Source: an uncultured Clostridia bacterium (lineage in GTDB: Bacteria; Bacillota; Clostridia; Christensenellales; CAG-917). From it: a stretch of 64,000 nt of DNA. The position numbers and the translations under genes are program-made. The DNA is taken from positions 397,566 through 461,565 of the forward strand of contig CAKQGN010000001.1 of assembly GCA_934233745.1 (NCBI GenBank), written 5' to 3'. The notes under the pieces are model-generated. The model was given only the letters and a program-made list of their open reading frames with translations. It ran no database searches and was not told where the DNA came from. Below are positions 47,700-64,000 of the stretch, piece after piece. Positions within the stretch are counted from its first letter, which is position 1; every line of letters starts with the position of its first letter.

Positions 47700-47879
47700 T
47701 GCATGTGGCAGATATAATACAATAAGAAGAGGGATTTTGCGGAATCTCTTTTTTTATATAAAAACGATTTTGTTGCGCTTTACTTTTTGCGGTTGCCGTG
47801 ATATTATTTTCTCACATAGCAGTCGCAAGGAAGATTTATTTTTTCCTTAACTGCACGAAGTGCAATATCATTTTTAGAT

Positions 47880-47972
47880 GTCATTTCGAGCGCAAGCGTT
47901 GGAATCAAGCCGTAAGGCGCAATTCGCTCCGCTAGATTGCCACGTCGCAACGTTGTTGCTCCTCGCAATGAC
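47880..47972. repeat. composite REP-like palindrome (unit GTCATTTCGAGCG..GGAATC plus an inverted GTCATTGCGAGGAGCAAC..GGCAATC unit)
   Basis: Two inverted units around AAGCCGTAAGGCGCAATTCGCTCCGCTA. Flanked by 30-bp direct repeats at 47841-47870 and 47987-48016. Confidence 0.8.
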
Positions 47973-47997
47973 AAGGGTAAATCGGATTTTCCTTAAC

Positions 47998-48083
47998 TGC
48001 ACGAAGTGCAATATCACTTGCGCAAAGCGCAAATAGCACTGTTGCCATCGGCAACAATATCACTGCACGAAGTGCAATATCAC
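47998..48083. repeat. tandem array of four variable hairpins, each followed by ATATCAC
   Basis: Units are TGCACgaaGTGCA-ATATCAC, TTGCGCaaaGCGCAA-ATAGCAC, TGTTGCCatcGGCAACA-ATATCAC and TGCACgaaGTGCA-ATATCAC. Confidence 0.8.
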
Positions 48084-48306: not shown

Positions 48307-48365
48307 TTGCGACTTAACTAATTATGCAAAATGTATTAAAAATCGATTTTTTGCAGTCAAACCTA

Positions 48366-48394
48366 TTGCAAAGTCGCACGCGCGATGTTATAAT
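48366..48394 (+). promoter_or_regulatory. strong sigma-A-type promoter (TTGCAA-17 nt-TATAAT, TG-extended) whose spacer is a GC-rich alternating tract
   Basis: TTGCAA at 48366-71, spacer AGTCGCACGCGCGATGT and TATAAT at 48389-94, 62 nt upstream of the ATG at 48456. Confidence 0.6.
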
Positions 48395-48455
48395 TATTGA
48401 GTATATTGAGAAAGTATGTACGCATGCTTATGCGCGCACGCACGCAAGGAGAGAA

Positions 48456-50246
48456 ATGAATTCCACAGCATACGCAAAAAGGACGCTATACAAACCTATC
48501 GATTTCTTCTTCCGCGGAGTGGCAGACACTTCGGGCAAGACGAAAAAGATTGCGTTTGTCGATGCGTTTCAAGTTCTGAACGATCGTTATCTCGGCAGAA
48601 TGAGCGTATGCAATTATTTTTACATTGCGGAAGGCTCCGTGCGCATCAATGAACTCAACATCATCGCCCTTGAAGAACTTGTCAATTACGACCTCGTTAT
48701 GAAGGAAAATTTCCTTATTCCCGATGTCACCTACAATTTGCCGTTGTCCACTCGTTTTTTGGAAAATGACAAAGATTTTGATTTGCTTGTCGATGCGCTC
48801 AAAGATTTGGGCTACAAAAAGGGCGGTTTGGTTATTTCGTTTTTCGTATCGTCTTTGACAAAATTGGACAAAGACGGAAAGGCAAGATACAATCGTTTGC
48901 GCAAAGCGGGCTACAAGATTTGCGCCACGGCTTTTGGCGAGGACTACAACTCGCTCGATATTTTTGCCGATTTCAATTTTGATTATCTCAGATGTGAAGC
49001 GCAGTATTTCGACACCGACAAGAACAAGAAAAAAGTGCTTGCGATGCTCATAGGTTTTTGCAAAGCCAACAAAATCGGTTTCATAATGGAAGGCGTGGAC
49101 TCGCCCGGTCAGTATTCGCGCTTCAAACGCGAAGGCGTAAAACTTATGACGGGCAGAGGAGTATCCAAACTTTCGCGTTGGGTGACCAACGAGTTTTTGG
49201 GACTCAAAGATCCCGAAGGCGAAAAGAAAGAGCAATATCTCAAGAAACTTCAAAAGGTTCTCGACGCCAAAGAAAAGGCGGAGCAAGCCGAGCTTGAAGC
49301 GTTGCGCAGGGCAGCGATAGAAAAGGCAAAAGCAACCGAAGGCGAGAAGGTTATGCCTTCGGCACCTCGTCCCGAACTTGCCAAGTCGCCCTATCAGGTG
49401 CGTCTTGAACAGCAAAAGCTGAGCGCAAAGAAAGCGACCGAGGAGAGATTGCAAGCGCAGGCGAAACTTGTCGAGCAGGATCCGAAAGAAACTGAGGAAA
49501 GAGAAAAGAAACTCATCACCGAGATGTCGCGTATGCGCTATGAAGGTGACGTGCAAAGCGCGCTTGCGTTGTCTTTCGCATCGCAAAAGAAGAGCGAACT
49601 CGGCATAGACAGACCGTTTGAACATAAGACCGAAAAGGTTGAACAAAACGCAGCCTCGGAAGAAGAAAAACCGCAACCGCAAAGTGAAACCATAGTCAAA
49701 GAAGAGGAAAACAGCGTTGCGGCTCCCGTCCGTCCAGAAAAACCGTCGGGATTTACAGCCCACAAGAAACCCAAGAGAATCAAAGCGGACTTTGACAAAG
49801 AGGAAAAACTTTTCAATGAATACAAGTCCGACAGTCTTTTCGGCGGGCTGGGTATGGATTCGGGCATGAAAGGCTTTGGCGTCACGATGCACATTGCGAG
49901 CAAGGATAAGGACGAGCCCGATCTTGTCGGAACATACAACGACAAAGGTCAATGGGTTGACGAGGACGGCAACGTGTTCAACGGCTATTTCGATGTCGAA
50001 GGCAACTGGGTTGAATACGAGCAGTTTGACGTGAGCAAGGAAGGCTCTTACAACGAGAACGCGCAGTGGGTTGACAAAGACGGCAACGTTTATGACGGCT
50101 ACTTTGACGAGGAGGGCAGGTGGATAGATTACACCTACACCGATCCGAGCGGCGAAATCGTCGACAACGGCTACTTTGACGATAAGATAGGCAAATGGGT
50201 TCCGTACGGTTACTTTGCAGGGGACGGGACATACCACAAATTTTGA
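48456..50246 (+). CDS. degenerate EAL-domain protein with a Lys/Glu-rich coiled-coil region and C-terminal GYFD-x-EG-x-W repeats
   Basis: EAL-fold landmarks are recognisable but mutated. EAL->DAF, DDFGTGYSS->TAFGEDYNS, EGVE->EGVD. RBS AAGGAGAG before the ATG at 48456. Confidence 0.7.
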   Translation: MNSTAYAKRTLYKPIDFFFRGVADTSGKTKKIAFVDAFQVLNDRYLGRMSVCNYFYIAEGSVRINELNIIALEELVNYDLVMKENFLIPDVTYNLPLSTRFLENDKDFDLLVDALKDLGYKKGGLVISFFVSSLTKLDKDGKARYNRLRKAGYKICATAFGEDYNSLDIFADFNFDYLRCEAQYFDTDKNKKKVLAMLIGFCKANKIGFIMEGVDSPGQYSRFKREGVKLMTGRGVSKLSRWVTNEFLGLKDPEGEKKEQYLKKLQKVLDAKEKAEQAELEALRRAAIEKAKATEGEKVMPSAPRPELAKSPYQVRLEQQKLSAKKATEERLQAQAKLVEQDPKETEEREKKLITEMSRMRYEGDVQSALALSFASQKKSELGIDRPFEHKTEKVEQNAASEEEKPQPQSETIVKEEENSVAAPVRPEKPSGFTAHKKPKRIKADFDKEEKLFNEYKSDSLFGGLGMDSGMKGFGVTMHIASKDKDEPDLVGTYNDKGQWVDEDGNVFNGYFDVEGNWVEYEQFDVSKEGSYNENAQWVDKDGNVYDGYFDEEGRWIDYTYTDPSGEIVDNGYFDDKIGKWVPYGYFAGDGTYHKF

Positions 50247-50924: not shown

Positions 50925-52046
50925 ATGAGCGAACAAGAAATCAACAACACCCAAGCAGAACAGACGACTGCGCAAGACGAACAATCCGACCAAACCGAGC
51001 AATCGGCATCGGAGCAATCTGCCAAGTCGAAAAAGTCTGCAAAAGGCGCAAAGGGCGACAAAAAATCCGCCGCTGCGACCAAAAAGGAGCAAGCCCGCTT
51101 GAAAAAAGAGTGGGAGGATTCTATCGTTGCTTCAAAAAAGGTCAAGCATGAGGAAATGCGTCGCAAGCTCAAACGCGCCATGCTGATCATGCTTGTTTTT
51201 TCGCTTATCGTGACGTCGGTTGTGTACATTATGCTTTTGTTTGTTCAAGAAAACAACATTCGCATCACGGCGAGCAACCGCAACAAAGAAAAATCAATCT
51301 CGTTGTCGATGGACAACGATTTTTGGACGCCGTACCTCAATGCCGAAGGCCCGGAGCATATGTGGAACATTAGTTATGATGTCCGCTACAAAACCGAGCA
51401 ACTTGACACGATTGCCAAGGTTGCCGAAATGCTTGAGGCGGACGAAGTGCAACTTGGCACACAAAACGGCGAGCAATTTATCAGATTTGTTTTCATGCTC
51501 AAAAACACGGGCAACGAGGCGGCGCACATCAACTATGAGATGACTCTTGAATTTGACAAGCACAAACTTCACGACGCCGTTCGCGTCACATGGGGCGAGA
51601 GCTTCAAGAATCCGAATGCAGAGCTTGAGAAAAAAACCGATGTAAAGGTTTATGCCGCTTTGTCCAAAAACGAGCGTCTTGCCGGTTCAAACATCAATAT
51701 CAAGGGTGACGGCACGCCTCGCACGGCGCAAGAGGGCTTCATCGAGTATGTTGCCTATCCCGGCGACTTTACCACACAGGTTCACAAGGGCGACAAGTAT
51801 TATTACGTCAAGGATTATGAATCCACGGTTGACATTGACAAGCGATTTGACGATATGGCAAACGGCTTTGTTGCCACGACGCCGTTCTTTTCGGACGAAT
51901 ATGTATTCCAACGCGAAGCGGACATGGCAAAAGGTGACATTATGTACTGTTATGTGAGCATCTGGCTTGAGGGGAGTGACTTTGAATGTATCGATGACCG
52001 ATTGGGAGGTTATTGCAAGATTGGCTTGAACTTCTATGCAACCTAA
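50925..52046 (+). CDS. membrane-anchored paralog of the two SipW-signal proteins (acidic/Lys-rich cytoplasmic N-terminus, one TM helix, exported domain)
   Basis: The C-terminal motif YCYVSIWLEGSDFECID..GGYCKIGLNFY parallels YYITMEIWIEGTDAECIQ..GGGITLKMEFVY in the 53502 gene. Confidence 0.6.
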   Translation: MSEQEINNTQAEQTTAQDEQSDQTEQSASEQSAKSKKSAKGAKGDKKSAAATKKEQARLKKEWEDSIVASKKVKHEEMRRKLKRAMLIMLVFSLIVTSVVYIMLLFVQENNIRITASNRNKEKSISLSMDNDFWTPYLNAEGPEHMWNISYDVRYKTEQLDTIAKVAEMLEADEVQLGTQNGEQFIRFVFMLKNTGNEAAHINYEMTLEFDKHKLHDAVRVTWGESFKNPNAELEKKTDVKVYAALSKNERLAGSNINIKGDGTPRTAQEGFIEYVAYPGDFTTQVHKGDKYYYVKDYESTVDIDKRFDDMANGFVATTPFFSDEYVFQREADMAKGDIMYCYVSIWLEGSDFECIDDRLGGYCKIGLNFYAT

Positions 52047-52165: not shown

Positions 52166-52337
52166 GAAAGGACAACGTGCGACACCAATGCCCCTACTCG
52201 TGTCATGTTGAGTGCATAGTGCGATACACACCCTCATGTGTCATGTTGAGCGGAGTGAAACGCAGTCGAAACATCTCCTGGAAAGGAAACGATGTGAATT
52301 GTCGCAAGTATAGCGCACAACAATTCAATTCTTCCTT

Positions 52338-52430
52338 GTCATTGCGAGGAGCAACGAATGTTGCGACGTGGCAATCTAGCGGAGCGAAATGCGCCTGACG
52401 GCTGGATTCCCACGCTACGCTCGGAATGAC
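52338..52430. repeat. composite REP-like palindrome (two inverted GTCATT.CGAG..GGAATC units)
   Basis: GTCATTGCGAGGAGCAACGAATGTTGCGACGTGGCAATC-TAGCGGAGCGAAATGCGCCTGACGGCTG-GATTCCCACGCTACGCTCGGAATGAC. Confidence 0.8.
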
Positions 52431-52492
52431 AGTAGGGTGGGACACCCACACCTGATTGACAAGTGGGATATTCCACAATCCGAGCAATGTGA

Positions 52493-52582
52493 GGATATCA
52501 TCGTGCGTTGCACGATATCATCACAAAGTGATATCACCGCCGCAGGCGATATCATGTGCGCAGCATATGCCTGCGCATCACC
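52493..52582. repeat. hairpin/GATATCA array
   Basis: GATATCATCGTGCgtTGCACGATATCAT CACAAAGTGATATCAC CGCCGCAGGCGATATCAT GTGCGCAGcatatgCCTGCGCATCAC. Confidence 0.65.
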
Positions 52583-52937: not shown

Positions 52938-52966
52938 TTGACATTTATGCATTGTCGATTTATAAT
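52938..52966 (+). promoter_or_regulatory. perfect consensus sigma-A promoter TTGACA-17 nt-TATAAT, ~535 nt upstream of the 53502 gene
   Basis: TTGACA at 52938-43, a 17-nt spacer and TATAAT at 52961-66. Confidence 0.6.
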
Positions 52967-52982
52967 TCATGTATAAACGAAT

Positions 52983-53022
52983 CGCATGTGTGCGTGTATG
53001 TACATGTACGTGCGCGCATATA
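52983..53022. repeat. 40-nt perfectly alternating pyrimidine-purine tract (Z-DNA-prone)
   Basis: In CGCATGTGTGCGTGTATGTACATGTACGTGCGCGCATATA every position alternates Y-R. Confidence 0.85.
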
Positions 53023-53107
53023 ATGGAGTGAAGAGGGCAGACGGTTGCGCAAATTCGCAATTTTACACCCCACCCGATAGACAAGTGGAATATTCCGATT
53101 CTTCCTT

Positions 53108-53201
53108 GTCATTGCGAGGAGCAACGAATGTTGCGACGTGGCAATCTAGCGGAGCGAAATGCGCCTGTCGGCTGGATTCCCACGCTGTCGCTCTGAATGA
53201 C
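53108..53201. repeat. composite REP-like palindrome (near-identical to 52338-52430 and, inverted, to 57647-57740)
   Basis: GTCATTGCGAGGAGCAACGAATGTTGCGACGTGGCAATCTAGCGGAGCGAAATGCGCCTGTCGGCTGGATTCCCACGCTGTCGCTCTGAATGAC. Confidence 0.8.
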
Positions 53202-53351
53202 AAAATGGTGGGACACCCACACCCGAAAGCACAACGTGTGACACCCCGTCCCCATGTGTCATCCTGAGGCACGAAGTGCCGTGAGGATCTCCTGGAAAGG
53301 AAACGATGTGAATTGTCGCAAGTACAGCGCACAACAATCCGATTCTTCCGT

Positions 53352-53400
53352 GTCATTCCGAGGGAGCGGAGTGACCGTGGGAATCCAGCCGTAAGGCGCA
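53352..53400 (+). repeat. REP-like unit (GTCATTCCGAGGGAGCGGAGTGACCGTGGGAATC + CAGCCGTAAGGCGCA)
   Basis: Same family. Part of a ~165-bp module that is also present at about 52240-52345. Confidence 0.7.
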
Positions 53401-53587
53401 CCCACCCGAACGCACAACAAAACAAAAACAAAAAAATAAAAAAATAAAATTTGGGATAAAGTTTTTTAGAAAGGGGCTTTATTCCGATAAGGAGAAAAAC
53501 GATGAAAAAGAAAGGTTTGATTATTTCAACAGTCGTGATGGTTGTTGTCTTGATTGCATCTCTCACCACCGCTACATACGCTTGGTT
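53401..53587 (+). repeat. outer inverted repeat, left arm (5' UTR, RBS and first 29 codons of the 53502 gene)
   Basis: About 187 nt, essentially identical (one A-run indel) to the reverse complement of 57443-57632. Confidence 0.9.
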
Positions 53588-54764
53588 CTCGGCGCAAGCA
53601 AGTGCGACAGTTGATGATCTAGCATTCACAACCAAGGCTGCAGATGGTCTTCAAATCGCTATGAAAAATGCTGGCTCAACAACTGCAGAATATGTTTCGG
53701 GCAACCTTACATACAACCCTGCTGCAACCGATAATACCTATTGGGAAGGCGATGTGAATGATTGGGGTACTAACCTAGGTTTTGATGCTATTGATATTGG
53801 TGAAATTACGGATGCAGTAACCTATCATACTACTCAAAATTATCCTGTATTTAGCGGATATACACCCGTTGCTGTTTTAGCGGTTAATACCACATATTAC
53901 ATTCCCACAAAACATGAAAATATTACTACTAAAGACGGATTTGATGCAATCTCAGGAGCAAAGTATTATGAGAAAGAATCTAAATATGTTCTTGCCAATA
54001 AATTAATTGATAGCGTAACAACTTACTACACAGTCAAGTCAACAAAAACGGGAAAAACAGCAGCAGAGCTTCCCAATAACTATACAGCAAATTCTTGGTG
54101 GGCAAGAGCTACAAGCACTGCGACTATAACACCTGAAGGCATTGAGAATAATGGCCAATTCCTCGTGCCTACTGGTTATGATGATTCTATTAACCCAATC
54201 GGTTATGCAAGTGCGGTTAGAAATGGCAATTATTACTATTTGACAATGGCTGTAAAACCAGTTACTGACGTTGACAAACTTGGTTTGAAGATGACATTTG
54301 GTGCCACACAAAATAAAGCAGCACAAACACTTGATACCTCTGTTACTCAAGGCAATCTAAATGGTGCTATGGCAGCTGCAACTCGTTGTAATATTCTTTT
54401 TGAAAACAGCGCACTTCAAACTGCAAATAAGTCAAAACAAAATATTGCTCCGTTCAGCGCATTCTATGTTGATGGAACATCGCTGAAAAAATATACAGGT
54501 GCAGATGATGCTTCGTTTAAGAGCAATGAAGATGGTGCATACAATGCTACTGGTGTATATGAATATGTGCTGTCAGACACTTCCGTCAAGGCTGGTACGA
54601 TCTACTATATCACTATGGAAATTTGGATTGAAGGTACAGATGCTGAATGTATTCAAGAAACTGCAGGGGGAGGCATAACACTCAAAATGGAATTTGTCTA
54701 TGACAAAAATGGAAATACCCCGGTTGCTGACTTCGCTGCTGGAACTACTGTTACATGGGCATAA
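53502..54764 (+). CDS. secreted protein with a SipW-dependent (TasA/camelysin-class) signal peptide, paralog A
   Basis: MKKKGLIISTVVMVVVLIASLTTATYAWFSA.. fits the SipW-cognate signal class (..T.AYF[ST]). A SipW-type peptidase gene lies 4 kb downstream. The body is more AT-rich than the backbone. Confidence 0.75.
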   Translation: MKKKGLIISTVVMVVVLIASLTTATYAWFSAQASATVDDLAFTTKAADGLQIAMKNAGSTTAEYVSGNLTYNPAATDNTYWEGDVNDWGTNLGFDAIDIGEITDAVTYHTTQNYPVFSGYTPVAVLAVNTTYYIPTKHENITTKDGFDAISGAKYYEKESKYVLANKLIDSVTTYYTVKSTKTGKTAAELPNNYTANSWWARATSTATITPEGIENNGQFLVPTGYDDSINPIGYASAVRNGNYYYLTMAVKPVTDVDKLGLKMTFGATQNKAAQTLDTSVTQGNLNGAMAAATRCNILFENSALQTANKSKQNIAPFSAFYVDGTSLKKYTGADDASFKSNEDGAYNATGVYEYVLSDTSVKAGTIYYITMEIWIEGTDAECIQETAGGGITLKMEFVYDKNGNTPVADFAAGTTVTWA

Positions 54765-54780
54765 TTCCAATACACTTGAT

Positions 54781-54853
54781 AAAAATTACAACAATATACA
54801 AGTCCCGATTCACACCGAATCGGGACTTGTGTTTTTTTTATCCCTCTTGAATT
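54781..54853 (+). repeat. inner inverted repeat, left arm; contains the terminator of paralog A (54798-54839) and the -35 box of the NTase promoter
   Basis: The 73 nt match the reverse complement of 56164-56235 with two differences. Hairpin ACAAGTCCCGATT-CACACC-GAATCGGGACTTGT plus T8. Confidence 0.9.
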
Positions 54854-54875
54854 GTCCACCCGTCAATGTTATAAT
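54847..54875 (+). promoter_or_regulatory. promoter of the NTase gene (TTGAAT-17 nt-TATAAT, TG-extended)
   Basis: TTGAAT at 54847-52 (inside the inner IR) and TGTTATAAT at 54867-75, about 30 nt before the ATG at 54906. Confidence 0.55.
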
Positions 54876-54905
54876 TTTGGTAGAAAGCCACAAAGGAGGA
54901 ATAAT

Positions 54906-55550
54906 ATGGCATATCATTTTGCAAAGAAAGCAGATGTTAAAGAAACCAACAAATGGTGTGTTGAAATTTTGAATGAAGTGCAAACCATTGTAAAAGATTA
55001 TTTTACATTTTCGTATGAATTGATTGGAAGTGGTGGCAATCGCCTTGTAACATACAATGACGGTAATCCATTTGATTTGGACTACAATATTATTATCCAA
55101 AAAGACAAGCAACATTTGCTCCAACAGCCAGACCAAATAAAAGATATATTCTTCAAAGCGTTTCAAAAGACTTTTTGCAAGAATATCAAAGATTTCAACC
55201 GAACAAACTATATAAAAATCAACAATTCAAAATCAGTTATAACTGTTAAAAATATTGAATATGGGAATTTGGCATTTTCTTTTGATGTCGCAATTTTGAG
55301 GCAACACCCCAACGGATATTTTGAAAAAATAATTTTTGATAAAAAGAATAATCGCTATATCTGGAATCAAGTCAAGGACTCAAAAGATTTGAACGATAAA
55401 GTTTTGCATGTAAAACAAAGACCTGGCTGGAACGCTGTGAGAGAACGCTATCTTGAATTGAAAAATAATAGTTTGCGAAACAATGATGAAACAAAATCGT
55501 TTTCGATATTCATTCAGGTCATAAACGAGTTATATCAACATCTTGAATAA
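54906..55550 (+). CDS. Pol-beta-superfamily nucleotidyltransferase (MNT/SMODS-like core with a ~100-aa C-terminal extension)
   Basis: The G-S...D-x-D signature ELIGSGGNRLVTYNDGNPFDLDYNII and a third acidic residue in AFSFDVAIL. RBS AAAGGAGGA before the ATG at 54906. Confidence 0.6.
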   Translation: MAYHFAKKADVKETNKWCVEILNEVQTIVKDYFTFSYELIGSGGNRLVTYNDGNPFDLDYNIIIQKDKQHLLQQPDQIKDIFFKAFQKTFCKNIKDFNRTNYIKINNSKSVITVKNIEYGNLAFSFDVAILRQHPNGYFEKIIFDKKNNRYIWNQVKDSKDLNDKVLHVKQRPGWNAVRERYLELKNNSLRNNDETKSFSIFIQVINELYQHLE

Positions 55551-55574
55551 CTCTCAAATCTATTAGATAACCAC

Positions 55575-55602
55575 CAACGGCGCGGAATCTTCCGCGCCGT
55601 TG
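55575..55602. terminator. bidirectional terminator shared by the convergent NTase and HEPN genes
   Basis: CAACGGCGCGGA-ATCT-TCCGCGCCGTTG, a perfect 12-bp stem. Confidence 0.7.
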
Positions 55603-55608
55603 AGTTGG

Positions 55609-56100
55609 TTAATTAAAAAGATTATTGTAACGTTGTTGCTCATCTTTCATAATTTTTGCAAGGTCTTCATTTATCAATGACATTTCTTCAATTAAATTTT
55701 CCAATCTTTCATAATAGAATGTTGGATTTGTTTCTATCAAATTCATTTGCAAATCTTCCTTAAACAATTGGTGTACAACATAATTGCGTTCATCACACAT
55801 TTCGTCCAATCTGTTTTGAGATTGCTGGACAAAGTAACCGTGTTCTTGTGCCTTTTTGAGGCCATATCCAAGCGGCTTACATTCGAGTATATGATACCAT
55901 TTTTCTGCTTTTTGACTTATGTTATTAAATTTTTTATAAGACATATTTTTGCTCTTATAGAAATTTTCACACAGTTCGTCTAGTGCCAATATATTGGCAA
56001 TGTTGTACTCAATCATTTGCGACAAATGCACCACAAGCCCAACCTTGCCCAACAAAGTAAAATATTGTTCTTCTTGCAATGAAAATTGTTGTTTACTCAT
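55609..56100 (-). CDS. HEPN-domain protein (R-x4-H motif)
   Basis: ..MCDERNYVVHQLF.. carries the RNxxxH HEPN signature in a predicted all-alpha, 163-aa protein. MSKQQF.. start at 56100 behind GAGGAG. Confidence 0.6.
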   Translation of the reverse strand: MSKQQFSLQEEQYFTLLGKVGLVVHLSQMIEYNIANILALDELCENFYKSKNMSYKKFNNISQKAEKWYHILECKPLGYGLKKAQEHGYFVQQSQNRLDEMCDERNYVVHQLFKEDLQMNLIETNPTFYYERLENLIEEMSLINEDLAKIMKDEQQRYNNLFN

Positions 56101-56141
56101 AACTAACTCCTCAAAAAATATCTCCCATATGTGGTGAGGAA

Positions 56142-56170
56142 ATTTTAGCACAACAACAGGCAAAATTCAA
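56142..56170 (-). promoter_or_regulatory. promoter of the HEPN gene (TTGAAT-17 nt-TAAAAT on the minus strand), mirror image of the NTase promoter
   Basis: The -35 box at 56165-56170 lies inside the right inner IR. The -10 box is at 56142-56147. Confidence 0.5.
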
Positions 56171-56235
56171 GAGGGATAAAAAAACACAAGTCCCGATTCG
56201 GTGTGAATCGGGACTTGTATATTGTTGTGATTTTT
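56164..56235 (-). repeat. inner inverted repeat, right arm; contains the terminator of paralog B (56178-56219)
   Basis: Reverse complement of 54781-54853. Confidence 0.9.
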
Positions 56236-56253
56236 TTCAAATCTTTTGAATTA

Positions 56254-57528
56254 TCAGCCACCAACTGCTTGAATTGTAAGCTCTTTTGCATCTTTGCCTT
56301 GAGTTTGCACAACAACTTTTGTTGTTCCGGCTGTTGCAGTCACAGTACCAGTAGAGGTGAATTTGCCATTTGACCATGTTCCAGCAATGGTTTCTTCGCC
56401 AATTTTGACAGTCGTATTTGTTGCAGTATAGGTTGTCTCTCCGCCTTCAATTTCAAGTTTATTGTCAGCAGTAAGTTTTGCAGATGTCGCTTTAGTCTCT
56501 GCATTTGCACAGTCAAAGAACATTTTTATATCACCAGATGCCGTTTTGCCTTGGCCGTTACAGTCAGTATCTGCACCTGCCATATAAATAACAACCTCCA
56601 CTTGCGTAATCTTATTTACTTCAGTATCAAGTCCGCTAATAACACAAGCCATAGAACCTGTTGGTAGTGTTCCACCTATTGCGGTAGAATATGCAGTTGC
56701 AATAGTGCCTGTCACATTAGTTGTAATATCACCTTTTTTTGTTGTGCCTTTGTTTGTGCCATAAACGTCGACTTCTGTCCAATTCGGTTCAGCTGCGCCG
56801 TCTTTCCTTACTCGATAAGCAACGTGTATTGAAGCAAGTATGCCAAGAGTGCTAGTGTCTGAAGAAGGTGAAATCATGACAACAAAATTGTTTCTATCAA
56901 GTGCCTTTGTCGGTTGAACGCCAAGAATGAAATGCGCATAATCGCCCGCACCTTCACCATTAATATTTGCTCTAGCCAACGATTGGTTTGTCAAATCATT
57001 CGACCCCTGTGCCTTGTTTGCAGCTATGACAGCTGTTTTGCCTGTCGTTGTATTGCCATATGCGATTGAACCATCTTGGTTTGGAGTATCTGTAACCCAA
57101 AAACGCGTATTTGCTGTTGTTGCTTTTGATGCATTATCCTCAGATGTTGCCTCGGCGGAAGTAGTTAAACCAACAGCTTTTGCTTGTGAACCCCAATTGA
57201 TATTGTGTTCAAGAGTTGCGCTTAACCCATCGGAACCACCACTCCACGAGCCAGGATTATTGATTTTCCCTGGTCCTGAATCGTTTGTTGTACCAGTTGT
57301 AAAAGTAACAGAACCAGTTGTAAATTCTCCAGCTGAGGGATTTTGGCTTAATGAATATTCTTTTTTCATACCAATGTTAACAGCATTTGAAGATACGACT
57401 GAAACATTGAAACCAGATATTTCAGTTTTGTTCGATGCCGTAAACCAAGCGTATGTAGCGGTGGTGAGAGATGCAATCAAGACAACAACCATCACGACTG
57501 TTGAAATAATCAAACCTTTCTTTTTCAT
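56254..57528 (-). CDS. secreted protein with a SipW-dependent signal peptide, paralog B
   Basis: The first 29 aa are identical to paralog A (MKKKGLIISTVVMVVVLIASLTTATYAWF). The body is divergent and Thr/Gly/Ala-rich. C-terminal region ..VEVVIYMAGADTDCNGQG..GDIKMFFDC. Confidence 0.75.
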   Translation of the reverse strand: MKKKGLIISTVVMVVVLIASLTTATYAWFTASNKTEISGFNVSVVSSNAVNIGMKKEYSLSQNPSAGEFTTGSVTFTTGTTNDSGPGKINNPGSWSGGSDGLSATLEHNINWGSQAKAVGLTTSAEATSEDNASKATTANTRFWVTDTPNQDGSIAYGNTTTGKTAVIAANKAQGSNDLTNQSLARANINGEGAGDYAHFILGVQPTKALDRNNFVVMISPSSDTSTLGILASIHVAYRVRKDGAAEPNWTEVDVYGTNKGTTKKGDITTNVTGTIATAYSTAIGGTLPTGSMACVISGLDTEVNKITQVEVVIYMAGADTDCNGQGKTASGDIKMFFDCANAETKATSAKLTADNKLEIEGGETTYTATNTTVKIGEETIAGTWSNGKFTSTGTVTATAGTTKVVVQTQGKDAKELTIQAVGG

Positions 57529-57632
57529 CGTTTTTCTCCTTATCGGAATAAAGCCCCTTTCTAAAAAACTTTATCCCAAATTTTATTTTTTTATTTTTTT
57601 TGTTTTTGTTTTGTTGTGCGTTCGGGTGTGGG
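57443..57632 (-). repeat. outer inverted repeat, right arm
   Basis: Reverse complement of 53401-53587. Confidence 0.9.
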
Positions 57633-57646
57633 TATCCCACCATTTT

Positions 57647-57740
57647 GTCATTTAGAGCGATAGCGTGGGAATCCAGCCGACAGGCGCATTTCGCTCCGCT
57701 AGATTGCCACGTCGCAACATTCGTTGCTCCTCGCAATGAC
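57647..57740. repeat. composite REP-like palindrome (inverted copy of 53108-53201)
   Basis: GTCATTTAGAGCGATAGCGTGGGAATCCAGCCGACAGGCGCATTTCGCTCCGCTAGATTGCCACGTCGCAACATTCGTTGCTCCTCGCAATGAC. Confidence 0.8.
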
Positions 57741-57840
57741 ACGTGGGGGTGGGGTGTAAAATTGCGAATTTGCGCAAAAATCGTCGCTGTGGCAACTGCA
57801 ACGCTCACAGGTGCGCATTGCCGAGAGCCACGCTAGGTTT

Positions 57841-58146: not shown

Positions 58147-58202
58147 TTTGAAAATAGAAAAATCAAAAATTGTAATAAAAAAACCCTACTGAATAGTAGG
58201 GT

Positions 58203-58233
58203 TTCAATTTGTTGGCGGAGAAGCAGGGATTTG
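58203..58233 (-). pseudogene. 31-nt duplicate of the tRNA-Ser 3' end and flank, with its own terminator hairpin (58180-58203)
   Basis: TTCAATTTGTTGGCGGAGAAGCAGGGATTTG is identical to 58387-58417. Confidence 0.8.
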
Positions 58234-58363: not shown

Positions 58364-58386
58364 CAAAAAAGCACTCTTGCGAGTGC
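58364..58386 (-). terminator. intrinsic terminator of tRNA-Ser
   Basis: GCACTC-TTGC-GAGTGC hairpin with a T-run on the minus strand. Confidence 0.7.
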
Positions 58387-58396
58387 TTCAATTTGT

Positions 58397-58488
58397 TGGC
58401 GGAGAAGCAGGGATTTGAACCCTGGCTACGATTCACTCGTACTACTCCCTTAGCAGGGGAGCCCCTTCGGCCTCTTGGGTACTTCTCC
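58397..58488 (-). tRNA. tRNA-Ser (anticodon GCT), long variable arm, CCA encoded
   Basis: The reverse complement is GGAGAAGTACCCAAGAGGCCGAAGGGGCTCCCCTGCTAAGGGAGTAGTACGAGTGAATCGTAGCCAGGGTTCAAATCCCTGCTTCTCCGCCA. Anticodon arm CTCCC-CTGCTAA-GGGAG. Confidence 0.85.
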
Positions 58489-58899
58489 AAAAAAATAATA
58501 AACAGAATATTTGTTTGTCAAGGGGCATTTTGCCGATTGACTTGGTTATAATAGCACATGATTTGAAACATTGTCAATGATTTTTGTATAAATGCGACGA
58601 TGGTTTTGCGCCGTATTGGCGCATGTCATGCAGAATAATTGTCAAACTTGGTGTTTTGTCATATTTTTGCTGTTGACACGGGCGGGGTTTTCAGCTAAAA
58701 TACATAGTGTATAGTTATAACTATACGCTACAGCAAAATCATTCGAGCAAAGCGGCGCGATTGCGCGTTCCGTTGAAGGGCAATAAGCATGGCTCGGTGA
58801 CGTCAATAGTCATTCGTTTTCTTCTCGGCTGCGCCGTTGGCGCGGAGTGGGGCAATAAGTCGTGAGTCGAAAGTGAAGAAGCATCATAAGGAAGACAGT

Positions 58900-59877
58900 A
58901 TGAACATCAAGGAAAAACTCGCGTCCTCTTCCAAAAAGGAACGCACTCCTCAGCAACAAAAGGCCATGACCATTCTCAATTGGGTGGCAACCGCAGTTTG
59001 CATTATTGTAATTATTTTTGCGCTGATTGTGGCGATTTTTACCATTGCCGGCTCTACAAGCAAGGACCATCTCACAAGATTCGGTGACAAGATTTATCTC
59101 AACGTCGCGTCCGACTCAATGGAGCCGACTTTCAGCACCAGCGACGTGATTATCGCAAATGCGTTCAACTATGAAAAACAACTTGCAGAACTAAAAGTCG
59201 GACAAGTCGTCACTTTCAAGACTACGGTGCGCTCGGGCGGAAATACCTATGAGGTTTTCAACACCCACAGAATCGTCAGAATCAACTTTGAAGAAAACGG
59301 CACGACCGTAAGAAACTTCACCACGCGCGGCGACAATTCAAAATCCGCAGACAAGGATAATTCCAAACTTTCATGGAAAGAAGCCATTGTTCAAAACACG
59401 CTTGGTCTCACTGAAACAGTGGCTCCGTCCAACATCGTTGCCACTTGGGGCAGTGTGGACGAAAACGGCAATTTCACGTCAGGCAAGATGCTCAAGGGCG
59501 TAGGCGGATTTGCCAACTTCATTCAAGACACAGAGCACTTTGGCGCAAACCATAAGATGCGTTTCTTCTGCATCGTGGTTTTGCCGCTTATTTTGCTGTT
59601 TGTGATTTACGCATTTGTTTTGGTGCGTACTCTCGTCATTGCAAAACTCGAAAATCAACGCAAGGTGCAATCCGAGCAAGTCATCACGGTGGACAGCCTC
59701 TCCGACGAGGAAAAACGCCGTCTTGCCCAAGAGTACCTGGCGTCTTTGCAGGCGCAGACAGGCGGTGATACGTCCGATACAAAAGCCGATGACGCTCAAA
59801 CCGACGAAACTTCAACCGACAAGTCGGACAGTTCGGACGTCAGCGACGACAATGCAAGCGAGGATAAACCCGAATAA
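58900..59877 (+). CDS. sipW: signal peptidase I, SipW (archaeal/ER) type, with a C-terminal TM helix and an acidic tail
   Basis: Catalytic Ser box ASDSMEPTF, His box THRIV, and TRGDNS..D. ATG at 58900 behind AAGGAAG. Confidence 0.85.
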   Translation: MNIKEKLASSSKKERTPQQQKAMTILNWVATAVCIIVIIFALIVAIFTIAGSTSKDHLTRFGDKIYLNVASDSMEPTFSTSDVIIANAFNYEKQLAELKVGQVVTFKTTVRSGGNTYEVFNTHRIVRINFEENGTTVRNFTTRGDNSKSADKDNSKLSWKEAIVQNTLGLTETVAPSNIVATWGSVDENGNFTSGKMLKGVGGFANFIQDTEHFGANHKMRFFCIVVLPLILLFVIYAFVLVRTLVIAKLENQRKVQSEQVITVDSLSDEEKRRLAQEYLASLQAQTGGDTSDTKADDAQTDETSTDKSDSSDVSDDNASEDKPE

Positions 59878-60076: not shown

Positions 60077-61591
60077 ATGAACATAAATTTAGTGTTTGAA
60101 TTTCTCAAAGCCTTCCTCGGCGCATTTTACGACAAGGGTATCGGCAGTATTTTCTGGGGTTTTCTGCATATCTTTTACAACGAAGGGTATGCGGACGCTT
60201 TCAAGAATTACACCGAGTACTTCGGCGCAGGGGAGTGGGCTGTCGCAATAATTTTTATCATTCTTATCGTCGCGGTAATTGTTGCGATTATCGTTTTGAT
60301 TGCGCTCGGAATCCGCAAACTCGCAAGACTTCAAAAAGCCAAAGTCTTGCCCCAGGACCTCGTTGAAGAATGCGCAAACCTCAAAAAGCAAATCATCAAA
60401 ATGTCGGCAGAGAAAGACCGTATTCTCGGTATGCGCGTGAGCGATATCGGCACGTATGAGGGCGAAGAAGGAGAAGATGGCGAAAAGAAAGAAGAAAAAT
60501 CTCCGACAGGCGAATCCCGCTTTTACAAGCTCACCGAAATCGACAAGATTTACGAAAATTACGTTCCGCCCGTATACGACGATTCTATTACGCTGCCCGA
60601 GCTGTGCGATCGCTTCCGCAACTTTGCCTGCTCGCGCATGCGCCTTTACTACAATCCGCGTATCATAAGACTGTTTATTGCAGGTATGTCAACATCTCGT
60701 CTTATGATTTTGCAAGGTATTTCCGGTACAGGTAAAACCTCGCTTCCGCACGCTATGGGTATTTTCCTCAACAACCCGGCGACGATTGCGTCCGTTCAGC
60801 CGTCCTGGCGTGACCGTACCGAGCTTTTCGGATACTTCAACGAATTTACAAAGCGTTTCAACGAAACCGAGGTTTTGAAGAAAATGTACGAGGCTACCTG
60901 GAACGACCAAATCTACCTCACCGTTCTCGACGAAATGAACATCGCGCGTGTCGAGTACTATTTTGCCGAAATGTTGTCAATTCTCGAAATGCCTTCACGC
61001 GACGAGTGGATTGTCGACCTCGTGCCGTCGGGTTGGCCGAACGACCCCAAACATATCGACAAAGGGCGTTTCCAACTTCCGCAAAACATGTGGTTTATCG
61101 GCACGGCAAACAACGACGACTCGACGTTTGCTATTTCGGATAAAGTCTACGACCGTGCTATGCCTATCAACATCAACAGCAAGGGTGTGCCTTTCGACGC
61201 TCCTTGGGCGGACAATATTTTCATCAGCTACAAGCATCTTGAAGCGATGTTCAAAGAGTCGCAAGAGACATACAAGGTGTCGCAGGAAGTGCTTGACAAA
61301 GTCAATAAATTGGACGACTACGTTATCGAGCATTTCCGCCTCGCGTTCGGCAACCGTATCGTGAAGCAGCTCAAAGAGTTTGTCCCGTCATATGTCGGAT
61401 GCGGCGGAACGGAGCTTGACGGACTCGACTATGTGCTTTGCAACAAGATTTTCCGTAAGTTCGAATCACTCAACTTGTCATACATCCGCGACGAAATCGA
61501 CGGTTTGATTTTGTATTTGAGCGAGCTTTTCGGAGAGGAAAACATGCAAGAGAGCAAAGAATACATCAACAGACTTAAAAAATTGTTCTAA
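60077..61591 (+). CDS. membrane-anchored McrB-like AAA+ (AAA_5) NTPase
   Basis: TM helix (WAVAIIFIILIVAVIVAIIVLIALGI), a coiled/acidic linker and Walker A LQGISGTGKTS. Walker B plus McrB-type segment LTVLDEMNIARVEYYFAEMLSILE, then FIGTANNDDS..DKVYDRAMPI. Confidence 0.75.
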   Translation: MNINLVFEFLKAFLGAFYDKGIGSIFWGFLHIFYNEGYADAFKNYTEYFGAGEWAVAIIFIILIVAVIVAIIVLIALGIRKLARLQKAKVLPQDLVEECANLKKQIIKMSAEKDRILGMRVSDIGTYEGEEGEDGEKKEEKSPTGESRFYKLTEIDKIYENYVPPVYDDSITLPELCDRFRNFACSRMRLYYNPRIIRLFIAGMSTSRLMILQGISGTGKTSLPHAMGIFLNNPATIASVQPSWRDRTELFGYFNEFTKRFNETEVLKKMYEATWNDQIYLTVLDEMNIARVEYYFAEMLSILEMPSRDEWIVDLVPSGWPNDPKHIDKGRFQLPQNMWFIGTANNDDSTFAISDKVYDRAMPININSKGVPFDAPWADNIFISYKHLEAMFKESQETYKVSQEVLDKVNKLDDYVIEHFRLAFGNRIVKQLKEFVPSYVGCGGTELDGLDYVLCNKIFRKFESLNLSYIRDEIDGLILYLSELFGEENMQESKEYINRLKKLF

Positions 61592-61606: not shown

Positions 61607-61950
61607 TAGACGGAACGCGAGCCGCAGGAGGCGAGAAAGCGAGCGCCGAACTTGACGAACAGTACGAGTGAACGGGCGAGTGTGGATTTTTTCGCCCGTG
61701 AACGAGTGGCATAATGAGTGAACGATACCTTTCTATGTGAGAGCCGAGTGTTGCCCCACGCGAAGCGGACGCCGTGGATTCCCTCAAAGTATGCAGAGGG
61801 GGAACGGCGGTATGGGCGCGACGCGTTAAGCAACACATTCGATGAATGTGTTGTAACCAAAGCGAACGAGGCGGATTGCGGTGCGCAAACGCCGAAGTCC
61901 AAACACGTGAGGAAGGGGGAAGTTTTAATTGTAACAAACGTGTCGGCGTG
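61607..61950 (+). repeat. structured interspersed element, copy 6 (long form)
   Basis: All blocks are present. The variable helix is ACGGGCGA/TCGCCCGT and the optional domain is at 61813-61900. Confidence 0.85.
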
Positions 61951-62070
61951 CGGGTGGGGCTTGCCCCACACCCCAATGAATAATTAGGGCGTGTAGCAAA
62001 ATACTACGTCTTAAAATTCCGCTTTATCAATCTATCGCCGGAGTGGAATATAAATAAATCTCATAAAAGT

Positions 62071-64000
62071 ATGGCAGACAACAAGATTACAAGAGAAGTG
62101 TACAGACAGTACGCAAATAAGATTGTTTCCGTCCTCAACAAAGAGGGCTTTTATGAGCAATTCAAAAAACGCGTCGACAAGGGCGCATCGAGCTTCAAAC
62201 TCGCAAAAAAACGCCTCGTTCAAGATATTTCGATAGACTGGATCGATACGATCGAAAGCATACTTCCCAATCTCGACACGATTGTACGCAACCCGAGAAA
62301 GTTTATCGTGCAGGAAGAGGATATTGTCGACGTATCGCTTGCAAGAAGTATATCGACAGAATCGGTCAAATACCTTGCCCAGCACACAAATATGATCTCG
62401 AAGGTCGATGAAAAAACAGGTGACGTTACTCCGTCGAAAATCCTCAATATCACAAAAGAGGAATCCTTTGAGATATACGAAAATCGCTTTATTTATACGC
62501 TTCTTTTGAAACTTAAAGACTTCGTAACCATGCGTTACGACAAGATTAAAAAGGCGTCGGCAACGCAGGACGTGCTGGAACTCGACATTGAATCGAGGTT
62601 CAATCTTCCGAGCAAGAAAATCACTTATAGAACGGAATATTTTGCTCAATTGAGTTTTGACGAAGTTATGCGCCTCGATCCCGACACTCTCACAAAAATC
62701 GAGAGAGTGGCAAAAATCGACCGCATTATAACCGACTTCTTGTCGTCGTCTTTTGCAAAATCCATGCGCAATTCGGCACCCGTGCGTCCGCCTATCATGC
62801 GTACAAACGTCATTCTGAAAGAGCCGAACTTCAAAAAAGCACTTACGCTTTGGCAGTTTGTCGAAACCTATCAGCAAACGGCAGGTTTTTCCACGTCCGA
62901 CGAAGTGGAAGATTATGAAATCGACAGCGAAAGCGAGCAACGTCTGAAAAGCATGATCACGCTCAACACGATGGTGTTTGAGAGTATGTACGATCAATGC
63001 GAAACCGATATGGATATGGAAGACAAGCAATTTGCAGACTTCCTCCGCGTCGGTCAGATGGATTTTGAAAAAGACAATATCGACCGCGACGAATACGCTC
63101 AAAAACTCGAAGAGCAAAAGGAAAACGAAGAAGAAAAAGACAATATCGAAGAGGTAAAGCCTCAGGAAGACGCGGAATCGGAAAAGGAAATTCCGCCCGA
63201 AACTCCTCCCGAAGAACAGGAACAGGAAGAAAAAGAGTCGGAAACTCCTCCCGAAATCGAAGAAAAAGAGATTGAAAAGCCTCAAGAAATAGAAAAAGAA
63301 GTCGTTGTCGAGCATCCCGTCGAAGTTGAGCGTTTCAAAGAAATGCCACCCAAAGCAGACCAGGAAGAAGTCGATCTCGAACCCGATGCGGAAAAATTCG
63401 ATCAGCATCTTTTCGAAGTGCGCAAAATCTTTAAGCGTCCCGACGACGACAAGATTAAGCAAGAAGAAATCATCAAAGCGCGCGACGCCATTGACCGCTG
63501 CTTGACCTCGTATCGTCGTATCAAACAAGAGGAACTCGACGAACGCGACAGACAAGAGCGTATACGCCGTCGCAAAGAGGATATCAAAAAGCGTGCGGAA
63601 GCGTTCAGAAAACAGCGCGAGGAGCTTGAAAAGAACATGGATTCTTCTCAGGATTCCGCATATTTCGGCATGGATCCGTTCTCCTTCCAAAAGGCTAAAA
63701 TTCAAGAGAAAAAACGCCTCGAAGAAGAAGCGAAGCGCAAAGAAGCGATCAAGTTCGACAAACACGAAAATCTCGAACTCGAAGACAAAAACACCGACGC
63801 CATCAACAAGTCCATCGACGAGATGGAAAAGGCTCGTCAAGAAAAAGCGTTGCGCGACCAAAGAATCGATCATACGCTCGATGCAATCGATTCGGTTATG
63901 CCCATCGAAGGCGATGTTTTGTCAAGCAGAAGAGCAAAATCAAAACTTCCGACCGAAAGTCAAATACAAAATGTTTCCCAAACCGAAACGCCTCGATCGG
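62071..64000 (+). CDS. large DUF2357/McrC-N-terminal-like protein with a >350-aa Glu/Lys-rich region (3' end outside the window)
   Basis: Not in the ORF track because there is no stop in the window. I translated frame 1 from ATG 62071 (MADNKITREVYRQY..) to 64000 and found no stop in the parts checked. Motifs FEIYENRFIYTLLLKL and NVILKEPNFKKALTLWQFVE resemble the DUF2357/McrC N-terminal half. Confidence 0.6.
   Translation, partial: MADNKITREVYRQYANKIVSVLNKEGFYEQFKKRVDKGASSFKLAKKRLVQDISIDWIDTIESILPNLDTIVRNPRKFIVQEEDIVDVSLARSISTESVKYLAQHTNMISKVDEKTGDVTPSKILNITKEESFEIYENRFIYTLLLKLKDFVTMRYDKIKKASATQDVLELDIESRFNLPSKKITYRTEYFAQLSFDEVMRLDPDTLTKIERVAKIDRIITDFLSSSFAKSMRNSAPVRPPIMRTNVILKEPNFKKALTLWQFVETYQQTAGFSTSDEVEDYEIDSESEQRLKSMITLNTMVFESMYDQCETDMDMEDKQFADFLRVGQMDFEKDNIDRDEYAQKLEEQKENEEEKDNIEEVKPQEDAESEKEIPPETPPEEQEQEEKESETPPEIEEKEIEKPQEIEKEVVVEHPVEVERFKEMPPKADQEEVDLEPDAEKFDQHLFEVRKIFKRPDDDKIKQEEIIKARDAIDRCLTSYRRIKQEELDERDRQERIRRRKEDIKKRAEAFRKQREELEKNMDSSQDSAYFGMDPFSFQKAKIQEKKRLEEEAKRKEAIKFDKHENLELEDKNTDAINKSIDEMEKARQEKALRDQRIDHTLDAIDSVMPIEGDVLSSRRAKSKLPTESQIQNVSQTETPRS

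Follow-up and report, generated by a model that had tools for sequence, protein, structure and literature searches.

Known systems and the layout of the locus

In Lactobacillus acidophilus, the paralogs slpA and slpB are oppositely oriented on a segment of a few kilobases (Boot et al. 1996, reviewed in PMC3666127), and that review places the promoter-bearing expression site outside the invertible segment and one gene without it, inversion putting this other gene behind the promoter (PMC3666127). A further paper states in its title that the slp expression-site promoter gives a stable mRNA (Boot et al. 1996b, listed in PMC3666127). Here we describe a locus of related geometry in a 64,000-nt stretch of DNA from an uncultured Clostridia bacterium (CAG-917; assembly GCA_934233745.1, contig CAKQGN010000001.1, 397,566-461,565), hereafter the window, to which all coordinates refer. 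Two paralogs, gene A in a left slot (53502-54764, plus strand, 420 aa, body type T1) and gene B in a right slot (56254-57528, minus strand, 424 aa, body type T2), face each other across a central bay with two further genes. We read this, with a probability of about 0.6, as a recombination-driven cassette locus on the chromosome of uncultured gut Clostridia of humans and animals, encoding a hypervariable extracellular protein associated with SipW; taken by itself, the part of this reading that makes it a cassette locus maintained by recombination is highly probable.

The slp genes reportedly share an identical 5' leader and signal-peptide region, and the stability of their mRNA is said to be due to a hairpin in the 5' untranslated region (UTR). 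The locus described here is similar in that its paralogs are oppositely oriented and have an identical 5' leader and signal-peptide region (in 12 genomes), and in that a promoter, here read from sequence alone, lies outside the repeat-bounded segment and before one gene only. It is unlike slpA/slpB in that its proteins have no S-layer or cell-wall-binding domains and belong to a different family, and in that their mature sequences are without a conserved C-terminal third. Moreover, a second, inner pair of repeats permits body-only swaps, the genes enclose a bay of toxin-antitoxin or defence cargo, strains exchange dozens of alleles, and inversion is suggested by comparison between strains only.

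Two other systems invite comparison. The sapA homologues of Campylobacter fetus have conserved 5' regions and divergent bodies, and RecA-dependent recombination in the 5' regions changes the gene that is expressed. The genes described here are likewise a surface-type family with conserved 5' regions and divergent bodies; however, the single promoter of C. fetus lies inside an invertible element between divergent genes, whereas here the genes converge and the promoter lies outside, and secretion is of type I in C. fetus, in contrast to Sec and SipW here. In Helicobacter pylori, babA, babB and babC have near-identical ends and divergent middles, and conversion moves bodies between differently promoted loci. 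Conserved ends, divergent bodies and a changed expression context are common to both, but the bab genes sit at scattered loci with no mirror arrangement, their conserved 3' ends belong to the coding sequence, and their products are Gram-negative outer-membrane adhesins. Unlike in slp, sap and bab, the 3' arms here are non-coding where they are conserved.

For the products, the nearest described systems are the secreted matrix or fibre proteins encoded beside a dedicated SipW in Bacillus subtilis (TasA/TapA/SipW) and Clostridium perfringens (BsaA/BsaB/SipW) (PMC9674648; bioRxiv 10.1101/2024.11.04.621531). A and B resemble these in the SipW-type neighbour, the T-x-A-x-F-type end of the signal peptide, the predicted all-beta fold and the accessory paralog nearby. 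They differ in matching no Pfam Peptidase_M73 model, in showing weak structural similarity only, in being about twice the size with extra domains, and in that their genes are not in an operon with sipW. A literature search found no description of allelic hypervariability or mirror architecture for tasA or bsaA, and a full-text search found none of the A/B family or of the locus architecture, which is not proof of absence. A mechanism of this type is known from slp, sap and bab; the locus differs from these in the protein family, the convergent nested repeats, the replacement of the whole mature protein, the cargo bay and the very large allelic diversity.

The initial annotation of this DNA had described outer inverted repeats around A and B, and these are present, though longer than given there. 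With one indel in an A-run, the core arms align at 53401-53593 and 57437-57632 (98.4% over 192 nt), and a repeat finder reports the ungapped arms 53419-53593 and 57437-57611 (175 nt, 97% complementary). The core comprises the 5' UTR, the ribosome-binding site (RBS) and codons 1-29 of both genes, which diverge from codon 29-30 onward; a 40-mer taken from the arm has exactly two occurrences in the window, where 0 are expected. Further upstream the repeat reaches 53045 and 57777 through distal matches at 53107-53235 and 57613-57741 (129 nt, 97%) and at 53045-53075 and 57747-57777 (31 nt, 100%), the left arm being broken by a ~183-bp insertion of a dispersed repeat (53236-53400). The full left arm (53045-53593, plus strand) is composed of a distal dispersed element (53045-53235), the insertion and the core, the last holding an A-rich tract, a 5' UTR hairpin (53453-53485), the RBS (53490-53495) and codons 1-29. 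The right arm (57437-57777, minus strand) is composed of the core with its UTR hairpin (57545-57577) and the distal repeat element (57613-57777). In 5 of its 13 pairs the UTR hairpin shows compensatory changes between species, and its probable role is in the stability of the mRNA or as a mark of the 5' end. One element, numbered as the fifth copy of a structured repeat, had been taken as a distinct context of the right-hand gene; it belongs to both outer arms and cannot mark the right side, because it is present upstream of both genes.

The inner inverted repeats that had been described, with both terminators and the -35-like boxes, are likewise borne out, at 54768-54853 (plus strand) and 56164-56248 (minus strand); the repeat finder reports them as the segments 54768-54838 / 56178-56248 and 54833-54853 / 56164-56184. 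Each arm starts 4-6 nt past a stop codon, contains a terminator with a 16-bp stem (hairpins 54796-54832 for A and 56220-56184, on the minus strand, for B) followed by a T-run, and ends in TTGAAT, the -35-like hexamer of a TG-extended promoter-like site. There is one such site for each inner gene, the next gene on the left and the HEPN gene on the right. The terminator 31-mer, too, occurs exactly twice in the window (0 expected).

Concerted arms, exchanged bodies and the two slots

The locus was compared with 64 related contigs, cited below by L numbers, all of which are metagenome contigs or metagenome-assembled genomes (MAGs). A 23-mer of signal-peptide codons retrieved 16 contigs from ~12 species-representative genomes, assigned to uncultured Clostridia, Christensenella sp. 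UBA MAGs, an Acutalibacteraceae MAG and CAG:238, with a few evidently mis-binned. A 35-mer from the UTR retrieved 34 contigs, and most of the descriptively named ones are labelled as human-gut metagenome. Close strains were added through protein look-ups.

In each of the seven two-gene loci, the two copies of the 5' arm share 90-99.5% identity. The arm spans -67 to -277 on the upstream side and +85 to +110 on the downstream side of the ATG, and where the mature protein begins, the similarity breaks off sharply. In the 12 genomes with two arms, the 60-nt UTR shows 0.58 differences within a genome versus 21.4 between genomes, and the 87 coding nucleotides show 1.5 versus 5.2; synonymous signal-peptide variants are common to both copies of a genome (permutation p <=1e-4). 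Constraint alone cannot give such genome-specific co-variation, so recombination between the copies is indicated, and on these comparisons the 5' arms are kept near-identical within genomes by recombination, that is, they evolve in concert. The ongoing gene conversion or cassette exchange that had been suggested from the window agrees with this, as the arms co-vary within genomes and differ between them.

Behind the one signal peptide, all loci together carry 47 body types at a threshold of at least 80% amino acid identity, and the mature parts are 25-45% identical. A comparison of related strains, which the initial annotation had proposed as a check, finds different bodies between the same conserved ends. 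The synonymous divergence (dS) of A between lineages is 0.07-0.08 versus 0.22-0.23 for the flanks, which points to recent transfer of the cassette. As a separate observation, B carries a nonsense change (TAC to TAA) at codon 26, within the signal peptide, in two samples (L025 7842-7919 and L026 950-1027, corresponding to window 57451-57453) and is otherwise at least 96% intact; it is a recently silenced cassette in these two.

The order of slots and cargo differs among strains. From left to right, the window and L027 carry A, a nucleotidyltransferase-like (NTase) gene with the HEPN gene, and B (L028 has the same genes without flanks), and L001 carries C, a DUF4238 gene with the HEPN gene, and A. 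L021 has C', a set with an MqsA-like and a SecB-like gene, and A, the slot of C' being assigned by deduction, as only 246 nt of contig remain upstream of it. L030 has A, the MqsA-like and SecB-like set, and X. L029 has F, other cargo, and A, which was placed on the right by the position of the other gene because the SipW-side flank is not on the contig. L025 and L026 have E, the NTase-HEPN genes, and B with the nonsense codon 26. Two contigs lack the flanks: L061 carries E and B with a different centre, and L022 carries A, an MqsA/SecB centre and a partner Y.

Two comparisons are informative on how these orders arose. A block of A and the centre, 98.9% identical over 3.8 kb, is joined to opposite flanks in L030 and L021, and this difference looks like an inversion of the whole segment. 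A simple inversion across the outer repeats, which the initial annotation had put forward, fails for the window versus L001, which needs exchange at outer and inner arms, because A changed slot while the HEPN gene stayed on the right; the unit moved between these two is 53045-54853. In a further case, body T4 is found on the left in L048 and on the right in L015, the two copies being 95.6% identical. As read from the assembled contigs, bodies and cargo have been exchanged independently among strains, and the same body can occupy either slot.

The slots differ in their upstream context. A perfect sigma-70 consensus promoter (TTGACA-17-TATAAT, 12/12; 52938-52966, plus strand) faces the left slot from outside the homogenised arms, followed by ~80 nt of conserved leader that includes an alternating purine-pyrimidine tract (~52985-53025). 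The exact promoter 29-mer is also found in L025-L027, L029 and L030. Of 24 left-slot genes, 20 have an equivalent promoter upstream, but of 12 right-slot genes not one does (Fisher p 1.5e-6, the loci not being fully independent). It stands 236-931 nt upstream of the gene in at least 6 lineages, always distal to the homogenised arm, and across species both it and the leader keep their position and sequence. The left-only consensus promoter noted for the window is thus real, conserved across several species-level lineages and absent from the 12 right slots examined. Upstream of the right slot, the only strong promoter is that of a tRNA-Ser gene ~1 kb off, followed by three terminator-like hairpins, and within the window's outer arms no sigma-70-like site scores 9/12 or better. 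From this asymmetry, expression would come mainly from the left slot, with the right slot as a reserve that is weakly expressed or silent; whether the locus operates as such a switch we rate a little below an even chance. One further candidate, a sigma-D/sigma-28-type promoter at CCGATAA just before the RBS, was rejected for its wrong spacing to TAAA, the RBS-less transcript it would give and the absence of the motif in several lineages.

Several observations weigh against this reading of the locus. The window arrangement recurs unchanged in two other samples (L027, L028), and the HEPN gene adjoins the right slot in all three placeable lineages (window/L027, L001, L025), its constant side meaning that frequent whole-segment inversion is not evident there. 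A -10-like A/T hexamer lies just upstream of the UTR hairpin in every arm, and the relative L009 has a full TTGACA-17-TATATA at the arm-internal site, so a promoter inside the arm may drive the right slot. The genes in right slots are intact and have been under purifying selection over the long term (ratio of nonsynonymous to synonymous divergence, dN/dS, 0.11-0.14). Both slot states are known from comparison between strains and not from reads of one clone, and metagenome joins across repeats of 190-500 bp could be chimeric. Finally, membership of A and B in the TasA family is not established, there being no Pfam match, a Foldseek match of A at no better than E 7e-3 and no TasA match for B.

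Most of these points would fit two ordinary co-expressed paralogs transcribed from arm-internal promoters, with slot position carrying no regulatory meaning. The repeats would then be a by-product of gene conversion and of strong constraint on UTR and signal peptide, and the diversity would reflect population-level allelic replacement under diversifying selection by phage or host immunity. The arm-internal hexamers and the full promoter of L009, the purifying selection on both bodies, the one arrangement in three samples and the constant side of the HEPN gene all speak for it. Equivalent slots, however, leave unexplained why the consensus promoter and leader are kept across species at the left slot only, and the arms of the window hold no sigma-70-like site of at least 9/12. 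In addition, a nonsense codon makes the right-slot B of L025 and L026 a pseudogene, and L006 has no right slot at all. We regard this explanation as unlikely, though it is the strongest competitor of the cassette locus with a left expression site.

It is improbable that the slot differences are assembly artefacts, produced by short-read misorientation or by co-resident strains joined at the arms. Short-read assemblers are unable to orient a segment between inverted repeats of 190-500 bp, and on this view neither A on the right nor the mixed combinations of partners would represent real genomes. All comparison data are metagenomic, and the contigs of L010, L028, L059 and L061 begin and end inside the two arms, as expected of breaks at a repeat. 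Nevertheless, three independent samples and assemblers place A on the right, each time with a consistent and distinct partner (L001, L021, L029), and T4 likewise occurs on either side, in a 388-kb contig and in a MAG. Diagnostic differences in the L001 arms lie less than 141 nt apart, so an assembly path at k=141 is resolvable there. The diversity of bodies and the concerted evolution of the arms are, moreover, independent of orientation.

The putative extracellular proteins and the proposed mechanism

The mature parts of A and B are ~22% identical in a profile alignment and homologous over their full length (hhalign probability 99.9), in agreement with the highly divergent bodies noted before; BLASTP matches them only at the N-terminus and a short C-terminal motif. 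For A we found 473 homologues. Among ~240 listed homologues of A and B, which come from gut metagenomes and Clostridia MAGs, none is named and none has a Pfam domain, and A and B themselves match no Pfam, NCBIfam or PADLOC family. In particular, neither matches the Pfam Peptidase_M73 / TasA-like model, and a profile search of PDB sequences did not return TasA. Both begin with MKKKGLIISTVVMVVVLIASLTTATYAWF, at whose end stands the T-x-A-x-F-[ST] pattern known from SipW-cognate signal peptides, and the corresponding model TIGR04088 aligns to residues 15-36, the expected position, at 11.6-12.1 bits against a cutoff of 19 (E 0.17-0.24).

AlphaFold2 models both proteins as all-beta, with a mean confidence (pLDDT) of 84 for A and 90 for B. 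The most probable Foldseek match of A is the TasA fibre (8aur, probability 0.85, TM-score 0.20-0.33), which at E 7e-3 is not significant; CanA and the Sulfolobus 0406 thread (Saci_0406) are also among the most probable matches, none of them significant. B matches Ig-like beta-sandwich adhesins (Epf adhesin, E 1.5e-5, TM-score 0.2-0.3). On these predictions we treat A and B as putative SipW-associated extracellular fibre- or adhesin-like proteins and do not file them as TasA family members; they are probably subunits of a TasA-like fibre or a surface adhesin.

The 29-residue signal peptide (53502-53588 and 57442-57528) is invariant in most lineages, with 1-3 substitutions in a few. This invariance persists where the SipW proteins of the lineages are only 55-78% identical, which is unusual for a cleaved signal; the sequence itself may matter for secretion or assembly, or selection may be keeping the arms competent for recombination. 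It would also be explained by a class III signal of the type IV pilin kind, cleaved after Gly5 with the helix retained as filament core. The start MKKKG followed by ~20 hydrophobic residues, the extreme conservation of the N-terminal amino acid sequence over 47 body types and the helix that AlphaFold2 models at residues 5-20 of B would suit such a signal. In contrast, the MKKKG-LIISTV sequence has no F/M-T-L-x-E motif and no Glu at position 5, its T-Y-A-W-F-[ST] end stands at the position of the TIGR04088 SipW-cognate motif (below cutoff), a SipW neighbour is conserved in every lineage, and library scans of the neighbourhood found no prepilin peptidase or pilus assembly genes. We therefore consider a pilin-like signal quite implausible, and prefer a SipW-type signal peptide.

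A gene unit of the cassette locus has three parts: a conserved 5' arm (A-rich tract, UTR hairpin, RBS and the signal peptide as far as its predicted cleavage site), a body that encodes the whole mature protein and can be replaced freely, and a conserved terminator arm, which is found in the window lineage and L001 and not in every lineage. Two such units facing each other give nested inverted repeats around a central bay. The arms are recombination substrates, homogenised within genomes and used as crossover points for bodies and cargo between strains and slots. In the mechanism that we propose, homologous recombination between them could move a body into or out of the left expression site, either by inversion across the outer arms or by paired exchanges at outer and inner arms, and the displayed protein would change, giving diversity of an antigenic-variation type without a dedicated invertase. 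Scans of 8 neighbouring ORFs in the window and of the called genes of L001, L020, L021 and L025 revealed no domain of a recombinase, integrase or resolvase, and because none was recognised among these neighbours, RecA-type homologous recombination on the 190-550 bp repeats is the likely agent. A shufflon or inverton driven by a site-specific invertase on short sites within the repeats would suit the inverted-repeat-flanked geometry, but it is highly improbable given the neighbours just named, the long repeats (190-550 bp) that end where homology ends and not at short core sites, and the exchange at the inner arms too.

Switching within a clone, that is, phase variation, is plausible. The fullest version of the proposal, a recombinase-independent two-slot antigenic variation of an undescribed SipW-processed family, with RecA-mediated switching by inversion or double exchange and import of alleles through the same arms, is tentative and clearly less probable than an expression-site switch as such; if true, the bay between the terminators would also serve as a landing pad for toxin-antitoxin and abortive-infection genes, and surface variation and phage defence would be shuffled together.

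Hypervariable surface structures decide the phage susceptibility and IgA recognition of gut bacteria, and almost nothing is known of such structures in uncultured Clostridia. The locus defines an unannotated, widespread SipW-linked protein family, and it could be used to test homologous recombination alone as the driver of an expression-site switch in Firmicutes. The 87-nt signal-peptide sequence together with one of at least 47 bodies offers a marker for strain typing and for tracking strain replacement in metagenomes. Because the arms are long inverted repeats, short-read assemblies break or mis-orient at the locus.

Cargo bay, flanking genes and dispersed repeats

The centre has a GC content of 35% versus 44-49% for the flanks. 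Its first gene (54906-55550, plus strand, 214 aa) is replaceable and carries a Pol-beta-type nucleotidyltransferase-like motif, GS...DxD...D, with G41, S42, D57, D59 and D127 invariant in 56 homologues. The second (55609-56100, minus strand, 163 aa) is HEPN-like, with an RNYVVH (Rx4H) motif and a Pfam HEPN_RiboL-PSP match below cutoff (E 2.7e-4, 21.3 bits vs 28.4). Copies 98% identical to it adjoin the right-slot gene in L001, L019 and L025. Of the naming of the pair as NTase and HEPN genes, the HEPN half thus has both motif and sub-threshold match behind it, and the NTase half its motif, with no Pfam, NCBIfam, PADLOC or PDB sequence match. A bidirectional terminator common to the two genes had also been proposed. 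Between their stop codons there is indeed a strong hairpin (55568-55610, -31.1 kcal/mol, z -7.65), but it is without clear U-tracts, and a shared terminator is a possible reading of it. The two genes converge and are no operon of the MNT-HEPN kind, and in L001 the HEPN gene is paired with the DUF4238 gene and not the NTase-like gene; the NTase-HEPN pair is not established as one module.

The bay lies at 54847-56170 in the window, 11351-12880 in L001, 11371-13944 in L020, 9479-11570 in L021 and 3008-4345 in L029, and it holds exchangeable cargo of toxin-antitoxin or defence type. The window, L027 and L025 carry the NTase-like and HEPN genes, and L001 the DUF4238 and HEPN genes. The set in L021, L030 and L022, an MqsA-like helix-turn-helix protein with a SecB-like chaperone, is toxin-antitoxin-chaperone-like. 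L020, a more distant species, carries AbiQ/ToxN, and L029 a distant NTase homologue with a 234-aa gene; L002 and L004 have no centre genes and a single shared terminator. A short promoter cassette (ATCCCTCTTGAATTTTGC...) recurs at cargo junctions. We considered insertion of cargo into a single ancestral bidirectional terminator, as in the centre-less L002 and L004, as the source of the inner repeats, and rejected simple target duplication because each of these repeats is a complete hairpin in true inverted orientation, its loop and flanks being asymmetric.

Over species-level lineages the gene order is conserved as an EAL protein, a 373-aa membrane paralog (p373), the slot or slots, SipW and a McrB-like protein, with a tRNA between the slots and SipW. 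p373 (50925-52046, plus strand) has a charged N-terminus, one transmembrane helix and the C-terminal W-x-E-G-x-D-x-E-C family motif, which it shares with A, and stands always just upstream of the left slot (synteny in at least 12 loci). Its dN/dS is 0.02-0.11 versus 0.26-0.43 for A and B at similar dS, and we infer that it is an invariant anchor, nucleating or accessory subunit. The SipW-like signal peptidase I (archaeal/ER-type; 58837-59877, plus strand) reaches 51.1 bits with TIGR02228 (cutoff 51.85) and E 7e-13 with the SipW model. It is the conserved right-hand neighbour in 12 related loci across species, which upholds the SipW association noted for the window, and from this position it would be the peptidase that processes A and B.

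Between the right slot and SipW lies tRNA-Ser(gct) (58397-58488, minus strand), with strong promoters of its own at 58577 and 58521 (minus strand) and three terminator-like hairpins downstream; tRNA and hairpins together probably insulate the right slot from upstream transcription. The 3' end of this tRNA is duplicated 184 nt downstream (58382-58417 and 58198-58233, 36 nt, 94%), and the duplication, between SipW and the right slot, looks like the att-site scar of an integrated element.

The conserved left neighbour is an EAL-domain protein of the cyclic di-GMP (c-di-GMP) phosphodiesterase type (48324-50246, plus strand) with a long repetitive C-terminal region, and it suggests c-di-GMP-linked control of the locus. 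A c-di-GMP riboswitch was considered given this neighbour, and Rfam found none in the leader. More broadly, Rfam searches of leader and arms at E up to 1 returned tRNAs and sub-threshold Gut-1 matches and nothing else, neither a riboswitch nor another known RNA. There are two of the latter, at 47986-48065 and 52490-52557 (both minus strand; 43 bits vs a gathering threshold of 50, E ~1e-5), and both adjoin copies of the dispersed repeat.

This repeat, ~130 nt long, occurs in at least 5 full or partial copies (47879-47986, minus strand; 52273-52455; 53045-53400; 57613-57777, minus strand), makes up both outer arms at their distal end and adds length to the left leader. Spurious ORFs over it read ...SLRGATNVATWQSSG..., and it could be an element like a miniature inverted-repeat transposable element (MITE) or a repetitive extragenic palindrome (REP), or a structured RNA. 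The sequence CCTAGCGTGGCTC..., found on the right in the window and in the left leader of L030 and L025, was rejected as a marker of an old inversion, as most strains have it on both sides; it is one-sided in the window because it is part of longer arms and was lost on the left in the window lineage.

The McrB-like AAA protein (60077-61591, plus strand; PADLOC PDC-M26A, E 2e-36) is followed by a DUF2357 partner (~61650-64000). It is 93-97% identical in amino acids between species where SipW is 55-78% and the EAL protein 60-85% identical, which points to unusually strong conservation or recent horizontal spread of this restriction-like module. A single-slot version of the locus is found in L006, a Christensenella sp. 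UBA7588 contig (373-8000), where the EAL protein, p373, the consensus promoter, one gene, SipW and the McrB-like protein follow one another; it suggests that the inverted second slot was added later, or was lost in L006.

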